Of a stretch of DNA of 64,000 bases, positions 42,044-47,536 are shown in pieces (within the stretch, counting starts at the first letter, position 1; each line of letters opens with the position of its first letter). The stretch lies in the NCBI GenBank assembly GCA_963704145.1, contig CAVPHB010000002.1, positions 67,878 through 131,877 on the forward strand, read 5' to 3'. The translations under genes and the position numbers were made by a program. Under the pieces are notes generated by a model. It was not told the DNA's origin. It searched no databases and worked only from the letters and a program-made list of their open reading frames with translations. This DNA is from an uncultured Chloroflexia bacterium. Lineage in GTDB: Bacteria; Chloroflexota; Limnocylindria; Limnocylindrales; CSP1-4.

Positions 42044-42886
42044 GTGATCTGCCCTTACTGCGGGCGACGCAACCCAGCCGGCGCCACGTTCTGCAGCCGG
42101 TGCCGACAACGACTGCCCGTTGCCGGGCGCGTTCCCAGCAACAAGCGACTCATCTTTGCCGAGCCGGCGGGCGGTGGCGGGGTCGGCGCGCTGGCCATTG
42201 GCGCGGCGCTGCTGGCCGGCTTCGTGTTCATCGGCGGCGCGGCGGCGCTGTACCTGTCGTCCCCGCCCGGCAACCCCACGCTGCCGCCCAATTTCGGCGG
42301 CACGCAGACCCCCGGGCCGACGCTCGACATCTTTGTCCAGCCGACCCCGACGCCCAGCCCGTCGCCACAGCCCACGCCCAGCCCGACCTTCTTCCTGAAC
42401 TCCCCGACCCCGACGGCGTCGTTCGAGCCGTCGCCCTCGCCAACGCCGTTTGGTCCGACTCCGTCGCCCAAGCCCACCCGCACACCGCGACCGCCGTGTG
42501 ACGCGAACGGCCTGCCGCCGGGCTGCAAGCCGACCCCGCCACCGGCGACGCCGACGCCGGAGCCGACGCCCGCCGGCCCGGTCGCGAAGTTCTCGTGGGA
42601 TCAGGTGGGGACCAGCTTCACCGTCAGCTTCACCGATACCAGCACCGGCGGACCCACGTCGTGGGCGTGGGACTTCGCTGGCCTGGGCACCTCGGACCTC
42701 CAGACCCCCCCCAGCTTCGAGTTCCCGGCCTACGACCGTGACTACACCGTGACGCTAACGGTGACCAACGCCAACGGAACGAGCACCAAGCCGAAGACCG
42801 TCACCCTGCAGGCGCCGCTGTGCACTGGGACAGACGACCCGCCGGGGTGCATTCCGACCCCGCCGCCGCCGGCGCCGGCGCTCTGA
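42044..42886 (+). CDS. Zinc-ribbon / TM / Pro-Thr-Ser-rich / PKD-domain protein
   Basis: ICPYCGRRNPAGATFCSRCRQRL, a hydrophobic helix, a long P/T/S linker, then FSWDQVGTSFTVSFTDTSTGGPTSWAWDF...YTVTLTVTNANG (PKD-like). Confidence 0.7.
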   Translation: MICPYCGRRNPAGATFCSRCRQRLPVAGRVPSNKRLIFAEPAGGGGVGALAIGAALLAGFVFIGGAAALYLSSPPGNPTLPPNFGGTQTPGPTLDIFVQPTPTPSPSPQPTPSPTFFLNSPTPTASFEPSPSPTPFGPTPSPKPTRTPRPPCDANGLPPGCKPTPPPATPTPEPTPAGPVAKFSWDQVGTSFTVSFTDTSTGGPTSWAWDFAGLGTSDLQTPPSFEFPAYDRDYTVTLTVTNANGTSTKPKTVTLQAPLCTGTDDPPGCIPTPPPPAPAL

Positions 42887-42932: not shown

Positions 42933-42960
42933 GAGACCGCCGGTGGTGACCGGCGGTCTC
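42933..42960. terminator. Perfect 12-bp stem / 4-nt loop hairpin between convergent genes (candidate bidirectional intrinsic terminator; no clear U-tract)
   Basis: gagaccgccggt-ggtg-accggcggtctc read directly. Confidence 0.5.
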
Positions 42961-42994
42961 GTCATCTGGATCCAGCCTCGGAAATGAGGCCCGA

Positions 42995-43093
42995 TCAGTT
43001 CCAGCGGTGGCCAGACTCAGCGAGGGGGGCGGTGCCGGAACGCACCGGCGTCGGAAGCGCCAGGAACTCGTCGCCACGAAGCGAGCGCTTCAC
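42995..43093 (-). CDS. Small ORF 2, copy A (32 aa): VKRSLRGDEFLALPTPVRSGTAPLAESGHRWN
   Basis: GTG sits 3 nt after the sORF1-A stop. Copy B keeps frame and near-identical length, with several synonymous changes in the conserved C-terminal half. Confidence 0.35.
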   Translation of the reverse strand: MKRSLRGDEFLALPTPVRSGTAPLAESGHRWN

Positions 43094-43096
43094 GGC

Positions 43097-43237
43097 CTAG
43101 AGCTCCGCGGCGTACGGCGCGGGTGGGGGCGGCGCGTACGACGGAGCGAAGCCCCACCGCATCCCTGCGCCAAGGGTCAGGGCCATCGATGCAATCAGCA
43201 CGAGGGCCAGCGTGAAGCGCGCCAGGTTCGCCTTCAC
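43097..43237 (-). CDS. Small hydrophobic peptide, copy A (46 aa): (M)KANLARFTLALVLIASMALTLGAGMRWGFAPSYAPPPPAPYAAEL
   Basis: AAGGAG lies 5 nt before GTG 43237. Versus copy B there are 3 synonymous and 3 conservative changes in the shared 28 codons. The upstream part of the 151-aa track ORF is non-coding leader. Confidence 0.6.
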   Translation of the reverse strand: MKANLARFTLALVLIASMALTLGAGMRWGFAPSYAPPPPAPYAAEL

Positions 43238-43269
43238 TTCTACTCCTTTCGAGCAGTTGCGGAGCACCA

Positions 43270-43365
43270 GTTGGCCGGCGGCTGGGCGGTCTTCCAGTCC
43301 CATAGGTGGAAGGTCCCTGGCTTTGCGTCCCCGCCTCACGACGGGTTTGCCCTGGACGGTTGCCC
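43270..43365 (-). promoter_or_regulatory. c-di-GMP-I (GEMM-I) riboswitch-like aptamer, copy A
   Basis: Minus-strand RNA: CCAGGGCAAACCCGUC-GUGA-GGCGGGGACGCAAAGCCAGGGACCUUCCA...UGGAAGACCGCCC. From memory of V. cholerae Vc2: CACAGGGCAAACCAUUC-GAAA-GAGUGGGACGCAAAGCC. GNRA-capped P1 hairpin and P2 stem are present. Confidence 0.75.
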
Positions 43366-43395
43366 GGTGGAGGAATCTTGCGTTCCTCGGGTGGC

Positions 43396-43424
43396 ACGCT
43401 ACGGCGGCTGTCCTGCGCGGCCAA
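43396..43424 (-). promoter_or_regulatory. Candidate sigma70-type promoter of unit A (-35 TTGGCC, 17-nt spacer, -10 TAGCGT)
   Basis: The hexamers and spacing are conserved exactly in both tandem units, about 40 nt upstream of the aptamer. Confidence 0.35.
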
Positions 43425-43552
43425 TGGCCCATGTGTACTCGCGCCGTCGCTGACCAACGAGAGGTGTCCCCGCGCACCGGCTGCCGCGCCTCGTGCATGC
43501 CACCGCCGTGAGTCGCAGCACAGGGTCCGCGCGCCAGCCGCGGGAGAATCAC

Positions 43553-43580
43553 GAGACCGCCGGTGGGGACCGGCGGTCTC
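43553..43580. terminator. Perfect 12-bp stem / 4-nt loop hairpin ending unit B (same stem as 42933-42960, loop gggg)
   Basis: gagaccgccggt-gggg-accggcggtctc read directly. Confidence 0.5.
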
Positions 43581-43613
43581 GGTTCGAGATCGAGCCTCTT
43601 GATTGAGGCGAGA

Positions 43614-43709
43614 TCAAATCCAGCGGTGGCCGGCCTCCGGAAGGGGGGCCGTGCCGGAACGTACCGTCAGCGACAGTGCGAGCTCACAGCCGGTCAGCAA
43701 CTGCTTCAC
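43614..43709 (-). CDS. Small ORF 2, copy B (31 aa): VKQLLTGCELALSLTVRSGTAPLPEAGHRWI
   Basis: Same position and frame logic as copy A. Shared VRSGTAPLxExGHRW C-terminus. Confidence 0.35.
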   Translation of the reverse strand: MKQLLTGCELALSLTVRSGTAPLPEAGHRWI

Positions 43710-43711
43710 GG

Positions 43712-43801
43712 CTAGTACCACCGCATCCCTGCGCCGAGGGTCAGGGCCATCGATGCGATCAGCATGAGGGCCATTGTGAAGTGCGCCAGGTTCGCCTTCA
43801 C
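43712..43801 (-). CDS. Small hydrophobic peptide, copy B (29 aa): (M)KANLAHFTMALMLIASMALTLGAGMRWY
   Basis: Identical AAGGAG-N5-GTG context. Lacks the ~51-nt 3' extension of copy A. Confidence 0.6.
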   Translation of the reverse strand: MKANLAHFTMALMLIASMALTLGAGMRWY

Positions 43802-43834
43802 TTCTACTCCTTTCGAGCAGGTGAGCAGGCACCA

Positions 43835-43932
43835 GTTCGCCGGCGGCTGGGCGGTCTTCCGGTGACCCAGAGATGGAAGATCCCTAGCTTTGCGTCTCCG
43901 CCTCACGACGGGTTTGCCCTGGACGAGTTCAC
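43835..43932 (-). promoter_or_regulatory. c-di-GMP-I (GEMM-I) riboswitch-like aptamer, copy B
   Basis: CCAGGGCAAACCCGUC-GUGA-GGCGGAGACGCAAAGCUAGGGAUCUUCCA...CGGAAGACCGCCC. Same architecture as copy A. Confidence 0.75.
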
Positions 43933-44633
43933 CTGTGGAGGAGCTTCTGTTCCTCGGGTGGCACGCTACGACGGCTGTCCGGTTCGGCCAATGGCCCATG
44001 TGTACCCGGCGCCTGAACGACCAATGAGAGGTGCCTCGGTGCACCGGCCGCGTGGGTGCGCGCCCGGTCGCGGATCGACCGGGTCACCCCGGCCGCGGCA
44101 GGCACGCACCGGCTCCTGGTGCGCATGGCCGTCGCGATCGCCCACACCACGCCCACGGCGATCAGCACGTCGCCAATGCTGAACACGTTGGCAAGAGGCA
44201 GCCAGCGCGGCAGGGCGAAGATGTCGGTCAGCATCTCGAGCGCCGGATGGGCCATCATCGCGCTGTTCGAGTAGCCCTCCGGCACCCCTTTGCCGAGCGC
44301 GGCCATGGCAGCCGCCCCGGCCGGCATATAGCCACCGTTGGCGATGATCGCGGCCAGGTTGCCGACCGATCCCAGCGCCACGATCGGAAGGCCCGGGATG
44401 CGCGCGTTGCGGATGACGGCGGCCAACACGGCGGCCGTCGAGGCGACATAGAGCAGCGGCCCCAGGTCTCCGACCCGCTCCGAGACAACGGTCGAGAAGA
44501 GCACCACCTGGACGATGAGACCAGCGAAGACGACCGGCTTCCAGTGGAACCTGATGTGGGACAGACGCGTCGTGTCGCCGCCGAGCAGCACGCCCAGCGC
44601 GACGCCGATCAGAACGGCGTAGAGGATGAACAT
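43929..44633 (-). CDS. Small polytopic membrane protein (hypothetical); annotated 3' end probably too long
   Basis: MFILYAVLIGVALGVLLGG... has about 5 hydrophobic helices and starts 7 nt after the GGDEF-EAL stop. The last ~40 codons overlap the conserved unit-B promoter/leader, so the true stop may lie near 44050. Confidence 0.55.
   Translation of the reverse strand: MFILYAVLIGVALGVLLGGDTTRLSHIRFHWKPVVFAGLIVQVVLFSTVVSERVGDLGPLLYVASTAAVLAAVIRNARIPGLPIVALGSVGNLAAIIANGGYMPAGAAAMAALGKGVPEGYSNSAMMAHPALEMLTDIFALPRWLPLANVFSIGDVLIAVGVVWAIATAMRTRSRCVPAAAGVTRSIRDRARTHAAGAPRHLSLVVQAPGTHGPLAEPDSRRSVPPEEQKLLHR
43963..43991 (-). promoter_or_regulatory. Candidate sigma70-type promoter of unit B (-35 TTGGCC, 17 nt, -10 TAGCGT)
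   Basis: Same hexamers and spacing as unit A. Confidence 0.35.
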
Positions 44634-44640
44634 TGCCGCG

Positions 44641-47302
44641 TCAGGACGCCGGGTTCAGTCGCACGGCGGGCCGCCGACGGCCGGCTGGCAGCGCCGCCGG
44701 ACGGGCAGCCGCGGATGCGGGCCGGTCGAGCAGCAGGCGCCGGACGGCGGCAGCAGTGAGCGGGCGGGCGAACAGGTAGCCCTGCCCCAGCTCGCAACCC
44801 AGGTCGCGCAGGCGCTCGAGCTGGCCCCGCTGCTCGATTCCCTCGGCGATGATGCGCAGGTCCAGCGTCCGGCCAAGAGCCACGATGGCGTGGGCAAACG
44901 CCCACTCGTCGGGGCCGGCATCGGGGTGCGGAACGAAGTCCTTGGCGATCTTGAGGATGTCGACGTCGAACCGGCGCAGGTAGCCAAGCGATGAGTAGCC
45001 GGTCCCGAAGTCGTCGATCGCGATCTGAACCTTGAGTGTGCGCAGCGCCTCGAGCCGGGCGATGGTCATGTGCGTATCGCTGAACATCGCCGTCTCGGTC
45101 ATCTCGAGCACCAGCCGTTCGGCGGGGAACCCGGTCTCGTGCAGGATGCCCTCGAGATCGGCCGCAAAGTCGGGCTGCTTCAGCTGGTGCGCCGAGAGGT
45201 TCACCGTCAGCAACAGCCCGTTCGGTCGGCTGCCGAGGCGGTCGAAGACAGCCGCCTGGCGGCATGCTTCGACGAGCACCATCCGACCCAAGGGCAGGAT
45301 GGTGCCGCTCTCCTCGGCCAGCGGAATGAACTCGTCCGGCTCGACCAGGCCGCGCACCGGGTGGCGCCAGCGGACGAGCGCTTCGACGCCCACGATCGCC
45401 CTGCTGCGCAGGGCGACGATGGGCTGGTAGAGCACGCTCAGCTCGCCGCGGTCGATCGCCTTGCCCAGGTCGGAGGTCATCGAATGACGGGCGACGATGG
45501 CCGAGTGGACGGTCGGATCGAACACGGCGAACTTGCCGTTGGCCCTCCGCCTTGGCGGTGTACATCGCCACGTCCGCGTTGCGCAGCAGCTCCTCGGGCC
45601 GCCGTGTGTCAGGCGTCGCCGCCGCGATGCCGATGCTGCCCGAGATGCTGACATCCTGGCCTTCGACCGAGAATGGGACCTTCAGCGCGTCGAGCACACG
45701 ATGCGTGACCGCGATTGCGCGGGCCAGGTCCGGCCCGTCCTGCATCAGTACCGCGAACTCGTCGCCGCCCAGCCTGACCACCAGGTCGCTCTCGCGCATA
45801 CAGTCGCGCATCCGGGCGGCCACGGCCACGAGCAGCTGGTCGCCGGCGGCATGGCCGAGGCTGTCGTTGACGAACTTGAAGTCGTCCAGGTCGAGGAACA
45901 GCACGACCGTCAGCCGGCCCACCTCGTTGTCGGCGAGCATCTCTTCCACGCGCTCGGCCAAGAGACTGCGATTGGCCAACCCGGTAAGCGGGTCGTGATA
46001 GGCCTGGTAGCGCAGCTCCTCCTTGAGCCTGGACAGCTCGGCCAGCGACTGCTCGAGCTGGCCGTTCTCGAGCGCGACTGCCGCCTGGTTGGCCAGTGTC
46101 TCCAGCAATCGCAGATCCTCGGCCAAGAAGGACGTGCCTTCGGTTAGCCGGTTGGCAACCATGATCGAGCCGATCAGCCCCGATTCGCCGCGCAGCGGGG
46201 CGACCATCGCCTGGCGCACGCCGGATTGGTCTCGCTCCGCCGGGGTGGGGATGTGGAAGAAGGCGTGGTCCTCAACCGCGACGCGGGCGAAGATCGGATG
46301 GTCCTGCGCCACCCGCACGGGCGTCATGACCTTCGACACGTCGCCGTTGGCGACGCTCGTCAGCAAACCCTCGGTCTGATCCTCGCGCGGATAGAGGAGC
46401 AGCTCCGCGCGCTCCGCGCGGAACATGTCGCGCGCGTGATCGAGCAGCGCGACCACGGCCAGGTCAAGCTCGCGCGAGTCCTGCAGGATGCGGCTGGACT
46501 GATAGAGCAGCTCGAGCCGCTCGTGCTTCTCGCGCTCGGAGAGGTAGGCCCGATAGGCCAGGAAGACGGTCGCCAGCGGGACGATCAGCAGCGTCATCAG
46601 CCACGCGTCGCTCTGGATGACCGTTACCGCGAGCAGTGCCAGGCTGGTGTTGGCGACGGCCACCAGCCCCCCGAACTGGACCATCTCGGGCAGCTTTTCG
46701 TACTGCGGCGCGCCGCCCGAGAGTGAGATCGCCGTGGCGATGGTGAAGGAGCTCAGCACCGCCGCGGCAAATGTCGCGGCGAAGGCCGTCATCCACATCT
46801 CGGGCCGGCCGCCTTGGGCGAGGTCCAGGCCAATGTGGAAGATGGCCAGCGTCAGTGTGCCCGCCGCCGCGAAGTTGACCAGGTTGAACGCGAGCTTGAG
46901 CGGCGACTGGCGTGACAGCACGAGCGCGATCGCGGTGCCGCTCATCAGGGCCAGCAGATAGCTGCCCGGCTCGAGCGTAAACAGGCCGATGACGGCCGGG
47001 AACTCGCTGAGCGAGAAGGAGTGCTTCTCACGCTTGAAGTGGACGTCGACGACCTTCAGCTCGGCGGCCAGGAAGCCGGCCGCCAGCAGCGGCCATGGGA
47101 GGCGCACCCCGTCCGGCAGCGCGAAGGACCGGCCGCTGAGAACGAACGCGTAGACAACACCGGTGATGAGGGCGAGCAGCAGCGTGAAGAGCGCCACGCG
47201 CAGCGCCGGTCGCTCCGCGAACGCAGCAGCGATCGATCGGACTAACGGCGTCATTTCGTCGCGAATGTTGATCCCGGGGCCTGGCCGCTCGGAATTCGGC
47301 AT
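44641..47302 (-). CDS. Membrane sensor / GAF-like / GGDEF / EAL c-di-GMP turnover protein (one frame break near 45560)
   Basis: About 8 TM helices. YHDPLTGLANR...RLGGDEFAVL (GGDEF). Then in a second frame (track ORF 44641-45654): YQPIV, EALVRW, LEMTE, IAIDDFGTGYSSL, AEGIE, QGYLFARP (EAL). Confidence 0.85.
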
Positions 47303-47536
47303 GCCTCGACCATCGGCCACGCTGATAATGCCCTCGGTAGCGGTTGCATAACCCTTTCTACTCGGCTCGCAGGGCAATGGCGGTAACTCGAAGGTACTGC
47401 GCCGAACACCTGACCCGTCCAGATGGGTGCTGTAGGGCCATCCAGGCCCCTCGTGTGGCGTGTCGGTCGCCTGTACTATTCGGTTCGGTGGTGAGCGAGG
47501 CGATCGGACGCCGTTCCGGGCTGTGAGGACGACGAA

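Follow-up and report, generated by a model that had tools for sequence, protein, structure and literature searches.

The c-di-GMP-I riboswitches (Rfam family RF01051; c-di-GMP, cyclic diguanosine monophosphate), of which Vc2 of Vibrio cholerae is an example, are built from helices P1, P2 (capped by a GNRA loop), and P3 with a set of core motifs, and lie in the 5′ leader directly upstream of the open reading frame (ORF) that they regulate. To our knowledge, c-di-GMP riboswitches as such are well known, but their targets in Chloroflexota are not. Here we describe a 64,000-nucleotide (nt) stretch of contig CAVPHB010000002.1 from an uncultured Chloroflexia bacterium (hereafter the window, in whose positions all coordinates are given) that carries two tandem copies of one unit on its minus strand (44050..42933). 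Each copy, read on that strand, consists of a c-di-GMP-I aptamer, a Shine-Dalgarno (SD) site, two small ORFs (sORF1 and sORF2), and a terminator hairpin, and the two copies, cassettes A and B, are 83% identical over about 630 alignment columns that include the leader, the aptamer, both ORFs, and the terminator. The cassettes share the architecture of RF01051 and add to it a covarying hairpin (P0), an extended two-part P1, and a platform made of an SD hairpin and a second hairpin formed by codons 1-9 of sORF1; the regulated genes, moreover, are ORFs of 29 and about 30 amino acids (aa) without a known family. We rate the family of paired micro-proteins and its unusual, partly intragenic expression platform as new, and the riboswitch class as known.

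The closest published situation that we found is that of the type I toxin-antitoxin loci of Clostridioides difficile, in which, as at cdi1_4/RCd11-CD0977.1, a c-di-GMP-I riboswitch precedes an antisense antitoxin RNA, with premature transcription termination, in prophage loci (PMC7699646). The likeness lies in the presence of a c-di-GMP-I riboswitch at a locus for a small hydrophobic peptide and in the duplication of the loci (PMC7699646). Here, in contrast, the peptides are encoded on the riboswitch transcript itself, no U-rich terminator precedes the ORF, and the locus is chromosomal and syntenic.

Two other groups of small proteins offer partial parallels. Small membrane proteins such as MgrB (which acts on PhoQ), SafA, MgtS, AcrZ, KdpF, and CydX are feedback regulators, and the cassettes resemble them in encoding a single-pass peptide of less than 50 aa, in having expression set by the pathway's own signal, and in lying beside, or being co-regulated with, a membrane signalling protein. 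They differ in the use of a riboswitch rather than a transcription factor, in the presence of two paralogous peptides, in the retention of a C-terminal A-G-x-R-W motif where the helix is lost, and in a partner that is putative, from synteny. Ribosome-arrest and leader peptides (TnaC, SecM, and the Erm leaders) share with sORF2 a variable N-terminus and a strict C-terminal motif near the stop codon, but no regulated gene lies downstream of sORF2, and sORF1 is conserved over its full length.

Selection on a pair of small ORFs

The cassettes are spread across one bacterial lineage. Searches with sORF1 yielded 24 clusters of peptides of 29-39 aa (consensus MKANLARFTxALxxLASMALTLGAGIRWx) and 125 profile matches at E <= 1e-3 among 1.84 billion representative proteins. 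A scan of one genome per species gave 27 good loci, 25 of them in metagenome-assembled genomes of Chloroflexota (labelled Limnocylindria/Limnocylindrales, Chloroflexia, Chloroflexota, or Chloroflexi); the two with other phylum labels are probably cases of mis-binning. In all 27 loci found via the peptide, and also in L001 and L002, a GEMM-I-type aptamer lies about 35-45 nt upstream of sORF1, and the metagenome loci L001-L005 likewise have an upstream aptamer. Because the 27-locus set came from a peptide search, metagenome contigs were also scanned in reverse, with an aptamer-only pattern and the ORFs ignored. A downstream stretch of 420 nt or more was available for 102 matches. Automatic calling assigned 88 of them a first ORF of the sORF1 or sORF2 type, and 7 more had been missed by the automatic pattern (variant start codon or K2R), for a total of about 95 of 102; the rest precede longer genes for secreted proteins (about 6) or are unclear (1). 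Cassettes that keep the RNA and have lost the ORFs, the pattern that would speak against real micro-proteins, were thus essentially not found. Other genomes and metagenomes contain the arrangement in over 100 independent cassettes, which puts the pattern seen in the window far beyond chance.

The substitution pattern is that of coding sequence. Across 107 unique sORF1 nucleotide sequences, entropy in codons 16-28 is 0.55, 0.27, and 1.27 at codon positions 1, 2, and 3, respectively. Residues A24 and G25 are invariant while all four codons of each are in use, and the nearly invariant A19 and L20 are written with four or more codons each, L20 with six; R27 uses seven. The pairwise ratio of nonsynonymous to synonymous substitution rates (dN/dS) of sORF1 is 0.30 in frame, whereas one of the shifted frames always contains stop codons and the other gives 2.2. 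For the 33-aa class of sORF2, the corresponding values are 0.43 in frame and 0.94 and 1.7 in the shifted frames. We conclude from these comparisons that sORF1 and sORF2 are both under purifying selection at the protein level, and we consider it highly probable that they are real protein-coding genes under the riboswitch.

The product of sORF1 is predicted to be a 29-aa single-pass membrane peptide. Hydropathy in a 15-residue window is 1.8-2.5 in all cassettes, and the peptide stays below 50 aa. It has a Lys and an Arg near the N-terminus, a helix with a face of small residues (S17, T21, and G25, and A19 and G23), and a C-terminal G-A-G-x-R-W; the distance from the Trp to the stop codon ranges from 0 to 18 codons. 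Natural in-frame fusions of sORF1 and sORF2 exist (P0029, with 70 aa and two helices, P0046, and P0131), and they keep the GHRW end. The R-F-T-L stretch was considered as a mini type IV pilin signature and rejected: the candidate site, A-R|F-T-L-A-L, has Arg rather than Gly at -1 and is without Glu at +5, and the Pfam N_methyl model gives no match at E up to 10.

The second ORF, present in 96 of 104 unique sORF1 cassettes (metagenome and genome loci pooled), is a diverged paralogue of the first. A membrane-type helix is found in 55 of the 96 (57%; consensus MKxxLRSQxxRxLxxLAxxASSALVxEAGHRW), and in some hybrids an sORF1 head is joined to an sORF2 tail (as in P0142 and L063). The window lineage's sORF2 has lost most of its hydrophobicity. 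The C-terminus reads A-G-(H/Q)-R-W, with His in 54 and Gln in 36 sequences, and in 74 of the 96 one residue follows the Trp; these last six residues (E-A-G-H/Q-R-W) are the only strictly selected part of sORF2. The Gly at -3 from the Trp occurs in 95 of 96 sequences, encoded by GGC (29), GGA (28), GGG (19), or GGT (19); the Ala at -4 likewise uses four codons, and the His or Gln at -2 uses CAC, CAT, CAG, and CAA. An RNA hairpin picked up in the terminator scan (CCGGC-CACC-GCUGG) was rejected as the cause of GHRW conservation, as the Ala and Gly third positions that it would pair vary freely. An antisense ORF on the plus strand (MRPDQFQRWP...) was also set aside, on the reasoning that the variable third base of the sORF2 Gly would be a first codon position there; the shifted frames tested directly are the two on the sense strand.

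The spacing of the two ORFs is tight. In 91 of 96 cassettes, sORF2 starts within a range from 4 nt before the stop codon of sORF1 to 5 nt past it, mostly with a gap of +2 or +4 or with a 4-nt overlap, and the start codon is ATG in 67. A GGUGG contributed by the CGG-UGG codons of sORF1 is located 4-16 nt upstream of 47 of the 96 sORF2 starts. Both the spacing and the upstream GGUGG fit translational coupling of sORF2 to sORF1. Arg27 of sORF1 is CGG in 55 of 92 sequences, a preference that would follow from the use of CGG-UGG as the SD site of sORF2, and the Arg at -1 of sORF2 is CGC in 94 of 96. In the window this CGC codon occupies 43622-43620 and 43003-43001 (minus strand), next to a Gly for which all four codons are used across the family. 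The CGC bias may come in part from avoidance of an SD-like GGUGG, though not clearly all of it.

Neither peptide belongs to a described family. At E up to 10, NCBIfam has nothing for either of the two ORFs, the single Pfam match (p12I, 15 bits against a cutoff of 25) is a chance one, and database relatives are named "hypothetical protein" or not at all. The peptides are likewise not described in the literature that we searched, on the variant riboswitch, DUF5317, c-di-GMP in Limnocylindria, and small proteins under c-di-GMP riboswitches; papers beyond that search may mention them. A preliminary description of the two window copies, made from the window sequence, had already held that they match no known family, which agrees with these results. 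It had further read each aptamer as preceding a hydrophobic sORF1 of 29 or 46 aa, and sORF2 as an ORF of 31-32 aa ending in VRSGTAPL.E.GHRW; both copies are as described, with one further residue after the Trp. Its placement of sORF2 three nucleotides past the sORF1 stop is right for copy A, while in copy B the distance is 2 nt. Codon by codon, we reproduce the three synonymous and three conservative (H/R, M/L, and M/V) differences between the sORF1 copies as well as the 3 synonymous changes among the 6-7 changed codons in the conserved C-terminal half of sORF2, and the two copies of sORF2 differ in length by a 3-nt indel. The G-x-R-W noted near the end of both products extends to a C-terminus shared by the paralogues, G/A-A-G-x-R/K-W. 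As for its larger claim, that these are real micro-proteins, one of them membrane-embedded, with expression that follows c-di-GMP, we regard it as supported: cassettes picked up by the aptamer-only scan keep the ORFs, and the substitutions are those of coding sequence.

The aptamer, its leader, and the first codons of sORF1

Both window aptamers belong to RF01051, with scores (Table 1) above the gathering score of 35. They are also close in overall shape and sequence to the c-di-GMP-I-GGC variant (RF03167), whose gathering score of 59 neither window copy reaches; in two groups of related loci it is reached by 16 of 20 and by 5 of 9, and RF03167 is the best-scoring model for most relatives. A search of the region at E up to 1 brought up no further Rfam family. 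At the position by which the GGC variant is told apart, all 31 aligned aptamers carry the canonical A; they read GACGCAAAG and not the variant consensus GACGCGAAg (likewise GACGCAAA against GACGCGAA in the GGC consensus). Among 166 aptamers in related loci, 161 have AAA at this junction and none has GAA. A GGC-variant riboswitch with another ligand was rejected on this ground, the variant-defining base being canonical in all aligned aptamers. All 31 aligned aptamers retain the motifs CAGGGCAAAC, GACGCAAAGCC, and GCCG, and CAGGGC is retained as well. The CAGGGCAAAC and GCCG junctions match those of Vc2, and the ligand-contact positions (G20, A47, and C92 in Vc2 numbering) are canonical. The canonical junction base and the motifs make c-di-GMP the likely ligand, and we hold this identification with good confidence.

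Structural conservation extends beyond the aptamer. When 31 leaders are aligned, standard pairs make up 95% of the cells of the consensus structure, compared with 40-46% in slid controls. Pairs change on both sides at 2 of 4 positions in P1, at 4 of 5 in outer P3, and at 5 of 5 counted pairs in P0, and the outer helix of the extended P1 (CGUC/GACG) is compensated as CAUC/GAUG in L009, as read by eye. Almost every one of the 31 leaders has a TAnnnT box immediately before P0, so that P0 probably marks the 5′ end of the transcript. The region further upstream is conserved between the window copies and across 142 unique upstream regions (L001-L154), and in all cassettes it contains the blocks CGGTGCG, GGCAnCTnCCCC, CGGTAC..CGGGnCATGG, and TAnCGT upstream of P0. 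These blocks could be a promoter, an operator for a further factor, or more RNA structure; because a strict sigma-70 consensus scan of the leader returned no promoter match (nor could an antisense promoter be called), a promoter in this region is presumed.

Downstream of the aptamer, the sequence around the start of sORF1 appears to be organized for control of initiation. An AAAGGAG lies about 35-40 nt past each window aptamer and the GTG of sORF1 5 nt further, and most related leaders have a local anti-SD/SD hairpin comparable to that of the window but of different sequence (by eye, unquantified). Codons 1-9 of sORF1 form a second hairpin, GUGAAGGCG-AACCUGG-CGCGCUUCAC, in which the GUG start is buried. 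In codons 2-9 the third position hardly varies (entropy 0.43, compared with 1.27 for codons 16-28), as expected where this hairpin constrains the RNA. Its nucleotides 1 and 26 covary (98 sequences have G-C, 6 have A-U, and 3 have A-C), and of the 9 sequences in which sORF1 starts with AUG, 6 also have AUG as codon 9, although this replaces Thr by Met. On this comparative evidence, sORF1 is conserved in part at the RNA level, namely in codons 1-9. As no U-rich terminator is found between aptamer and ORF, control is probably translational, and we lean towards a switch that acts through the SD and start-codon hairpins rather than through transcription termination.

The loop of the start-codon hairpin deserves mention. 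Its CCUGG (43789-43785 and 43225-43221, minus strand) is complementary to a CCAGG at the aptamer junction (43923-43919 and 43356-43352, minus strand) that includes ligand-contact bases. The loop sequence is kept in 99 of 107 sORF1 sequences, down to a silent Leu position, and absent in 8. Pairing of CCUGG with CCAGG could be a switching contact, although the 8 exceptions keep CCAGG.

Layout of the window and neighbouring genes

The features of the two cassettes and their neighbours are listed in Table 1. The tail of sORF1-A is an insertion of about 51 nt, the last codons of which provide a GGAG 9 nt upstream of sORF2-A; in cassette B, a GGUGG within the CGG-UGG codons of sORF1-B lies 8 nt upstream of the sORF2-B start. 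Hairpin 1 has a conserved stem and a loop that varies between the two copies. A strong GC-rich hairpin (12 bp in the window; core GACCGCCGG...CCGGCGGUC) follows sORF2 in all 29 folded cassettes (genome loci, L001/L002, and the window). Its U-tail is weak, and the textbook terminator pattern is not matched. The genes downstream of the cassette differ between loci or are convergent.

Table 1. Positions of the cassette elements and adjoining genes in the window
Feature	Positions	Strand	Details
Cassette B leader and putative promoter region, conserved	43963..44050	-	blocks CGGTGC, GGCACCTCTC, GGGTAC..CATGGG; -10-like TAGCGT 43968..43963
Cassette B hairpin P0 (GAGGA-ACAGAAGC-UCCUC)	43938..43955	-	immediately 5′ of aptamer; RNAalifold
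Cassette B c-di-GMP-I aptamer	43839..43928	-	RF01051 49.6 bits; RF03167 54.2 bits
Cassette B SD hairpin (CUGCUC-GAAAG-GAGUAG)	43807..43820	-	GGAG at 43810..43807; sequence reading and constrained fold
Cassette B start-codon hairpin (GUGAAGGCG-AACCUGG-CGCACUUCAC)	43776..43801	-	sORF1 codons 1-9
sORF1-B, 29 aa, MKANLAHFTMALMLIASMALTLGAGMRWY	43712..43801	-	GTG start; predicted single-pass membrane peptide, hydropathy 2.09
sORF2-B, 31 aa, (M)KQLLTGCELALSLTVRSGTAPLPEAGHRWI	43614..43709	-	GTG start 2 nt past sORF1-B stop
Cassette B hairpin 1 (GAUC..GCCUC-loop-GAGGC..GAUC)	43588..43615	-	5′ arm begins within sORF2 stop codon
Cassette B terminator-type hairpin (GAGACCGCCGGU-CCCC-ACCGGCGGUCUC)	43553..43580	-	folding
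Cassette A leader and putative promoter region, conserved	43396..43480	-	-10-like TAGCGT 43401..43396
Cassette A hairpin P0 (GAGGAAC-GCAAG-AUUCCUC)	43370..43388	-	alignment and fold
Cassette A c-di-GMP-I aptamer	43274..43361	-	RF01051 47.8 bits; RF03167 54.4 bits
Cassette A start-codon hairpin	43212..43237	-	SD GGAG at 43246..43243
sORF1-A, 46 aa: 28-residue family core and in-frame 17-aa Pro-rich tail (GFAPSYAPPPPAPYAAEL)	43097..43237	-	GTG start
sORF2-A, 32 aa, (M)KRSLRGDEFLALPTPVRSGTAPLAESGHRWN	42995..43093	-	GTG start 3 nt past sORF1-A stop; not hydrophobic (0.67)
Cassette A hairpin 1 (GAUC..GCCUC-AUUUCC-GAGGC..GAUC)	42969..42996	-	folding
Cassette A terminator-type hairpin (GAGACCGCCGGU-CACC-ACCGGCGGUCUC)	42933..42960	-	faces convergent PKD/zinc-ribbon gene 42044..42886 (+)
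DUF5317 membrane protein, directly upstream of cassette B	43929..44633	-	Pfam PF17248, E = 7.9e-27
Membrane-anchored GAF-GGDEF(-EAL) c-di-GMP enzyme	44609..47377	-	Pfam GAF, GGDEF, EAL

The neighbourhood is conserved on the upstream side. In 24 of 29 distinct loci, the gene immediately before the cassette encodes a DUF5317 membrane protein, on the same strand and with its end about 300 nt before sORF1, and DUF5317 was found on 102 related loci, including the aptamer-anchored ones. The protein (44109-44633, minus strand) has the invariant motifs NGGxMP, YSNS, LTDxFxxP, and NxFSxGDxLIxxG, and an exact-sequence look-up of the window copy returned no record. Its ORF in the window runs about 59 aa past the usual C-terminus (43929-44108), through the cassette B leader, to end at the base just before the aptamer, an extension that is probably due to chance in GC-rich DNA. 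The Asp motifs LTDxF and SxGD led us to consider an LspA/GxGD-type peptidase that would cut A-G|x-R-W; this idea found no support, as a profile search of PDB gave no match, hhalign against Escherichia coli LspA gave 1% probability, and no fold matched. A GAF-GGDEF-EAL enzyme adjoins DUF5317 in related loci, usually upstream and sometimes downstream or divergent. In the window, the GAF-GGDEF ORF (922 aa) and the EAL part (ORF 44641..45654) lie in different frames that overlap at about 45540-45654, whereas orthologues are single genes; the window copy is either a frameshifted pseudogene or the product of an assembly error. The convergent gene on the other side (42044-42886, plus strand) encodes a zinc-ribbon, transmembrane, Pro/Thr-rich PKD-domain protein, and in L008, too, its homologue is close to the cassette.

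Many genomes carry duplicate cassettes, in tandem or close by (L014, L016, L028, L029, L039, L055, L077, and L107), and in the first copy of L016 and of L067 sORF2 has been lost. Aptamers of the same sequence type are also found before genes whose products are secreted proteins of about 200-240 aa with DDVYVDPYR-like ends (L043, L054, L057, L103, and L153) and, in L119, before a gene for a 567-aa protein that by eye resembles subtilisin-type peptidases. The presence of this aptamer type upstream of such genes suggests a small regulon of extracellular proteins in the Limnocylindria lineage.

Possible functions of the peptides

What might a riboswitch gain by controlling two peptides of some 30 residues? 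The terminator hairpin that follows and the differing downstream genes point to the peptides themselves as the cargo, and the best explanation that we can offer has each cassette as an autonomous transcription unit of about 430 nt with the two micro-proteins as its sole cargo. Binding of c-di-GMP to the aptamer would change translation initiation via the SD and start-codon hairpins, and sORF2 would be translated by coupling to sORF1, often with CGG-UGG as its SD site. The peptide pair would then act at the membrane on the DUF5317 protein and/or the GAF-GGDEF-EAL enzyme and, like MgrB on PhoQ, close a feedback loop on the level of c-di-GMP. As a whole, with anatomy, translational switch, and feedback taken together, we give this explanation about an even chance. 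Its last step, feedback on DUF5317 or the GGDEF-EAL enzyme, is drawn from the gene neighbourhood and is a tentative and rather doubtful part of it.

Several observations weigh against such a feedback pair. Translation in vivo is something that we infer from comparison, and the ligand from sequence, rather than from direct evidence of translation or of binding. When the leader was folded with the aptamer forced or free, SD accessibility did not change consistently, and forcing the aptamer gave only a weak trend towards start-codon pairing, which would be expected for any local hairpin. The pair is also not obligatory: sORF2 is missing from 8 of the 104 cassettes, and a lone sORF2-type ORF follows some aptamers (the second copies of L028 and L029, and L089, L106, L118, L130, and L132). 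In 41 of 96 cassettes, both window copies included, sORF2 is not hydrophobic, its N-terminal part being free in sequence and length, and the shortest examples have 9 aa (MAPLEGHRW and MAPDAGRRW) and retain the C-terminal motif all the same. Contacts between membrane helices would by themselves fail to explain these forms, and the persistence of A-G-x-R-W in them keeps alive a cis role on the ribosome, a processed signal peptide, and direct nucleotide binding. The putative partner offers no functional clue of its own, since its AlphaFold model (predicted local distance difference test 86, predicted template modelling score 0.81) finds nothing in PDB below E = 6 with Foldseek and hence no matching solved fold.

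The alternatives differ chiefly in how much of the conserved material they can account for. If the sORFs, and sORF2 above all, were cis-acting and not free peptides, with A-G-x-R-W causing arrest or slow termination inside the ribosome and thereby deciding what becomes of the mRNA, the conservation of sORF2 would be readily understood: as in arrest and leader peptides, its N-terminus is free (9-36 aa) while the last five to six residues are kept, in most cases with one codon between them and the stop (74 of 96), a hairpin includes the stop codon in its 5′ arm, and the Arg(-1) codon is CGC almost throughout (94 of 96). Yet such a peptide would have nothing downstream to regulate, as a terminator hairpin is present in all folded cassettes and the next genes differ or are convergent, and we saw nothing to suggest that hairpin 1 and the terminator pair alternatively. 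In sORF1, selection at the protein level covers the entire transmembrane segment, more than an arrest peptide would require, and the spacing between its Trp and the stop varies from 0 to 18 codons; we therefore regard a cis role as unlikely. A related thought is that the peptides are exported and processed, either with a hydrophobic signal peptide cut after A-G to free an x-R-W-x product of 3-5 residues or with the helix itself as the product, as in pheromone precursors of Gram-positive bacteria. The charged N-terminus, hydrophobic core, and small residues at -3/-1 (G-A-G) before x-R-W in sORF1 would suit this, as would its Trp-rich C-terminal tails (RWDWWS, RWW, and RWDFWW) and the control of secreted proteins by the same aptamer type in this lineage, but 43% of sORF2 sequences have no hydrophobic segment and keep the motif, sORF2 has Glu at -3, no gene for a receptor, exporter, or peptidase is linked, and DUF5317 is unlike LspA or any solved structure, and so we give processing little weight. 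Perhaps A-G-x-R-W is instead a self-standing functional module of both paralogues, which might bind c-di-GMP through its Arg and Trp, act on the ribosome, or be released as a tiny signal peptide. We think this improbable, but if it were true, the cassettes would define a new class of c-di-GMP effector or messenger micro-peptides, their dose set by a c-di-GMP riboswitch.

Toxicity has the closest published precedent, the C. difficile type I toxin-antitoxin loci with their c-di-GMP-I riboswitches (PMC7699646). Membrane-perturbing or holin-like peptides, with a dose set by c-di-GMP and a role in, for example, dormancy or lysis in biofilms, would fit the small size (29-35 aa), the hydrophobicity, and the charged or aromatic ends of these peptides, as well as the recurrent duplication of the cassettes. 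In C. difficile, however, the riboswitch drives the antisense antitoxin RNA, whereas here the selected frame is on the riboswitch strand; judging from the third-base variation of the sORF2 Gly, no conserved antisense ORF is apparent, and no antitoxin was identified. The locus is also chromosomal, strictly syntenic with housekeeping-type signalling genes, and lineage-wide, unlike mobile toxin-antitoxin modules, and a toxin is accordingly among the readings that we believe least. Least credible of all is a reading that takes the ORFs as incidental and the sequence past the aptamers as non-coding RNA or as an extension of the expression platform. High-GC genomes do yield long chance ORFs, and codons 1-9 of sORF1 are indeed RNA-constrained, but invariant residues that use four codons each and a third-position entropy 2-5 times that of positions 1 and 2 are hard to reconcile with it. 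More than 100 cassettes preserve the reading frame and the close succession of stop and start, the two ORFs are fused in frame in some natural cases, and the hairpin over the GHRW codons is not maintained.

Whatever the mode of action, the riboswitch-controlled micro-protein pair provides a testable handle on the function of DUF5317, on the use of the first codons of an ORF as a riboswitch platform, and on the survival of a five-residue C-terminal motif. It also illustrates that tiny ORFs can be validated by comparative data alone. With more than 100 cassettes and about 125 representative sequences, this is a lineage-wide micro-protein family that annotation pipelines have overlooked. Limnocylindria are abundant, uncultured bacteria of soil and freshwater, and a family tied to c-di-GMP and fixed beside a diguanylate cyclase/phosphodiesterase and a DUF5317 protein points to unrecognised players in their c-di-GMP signalling.

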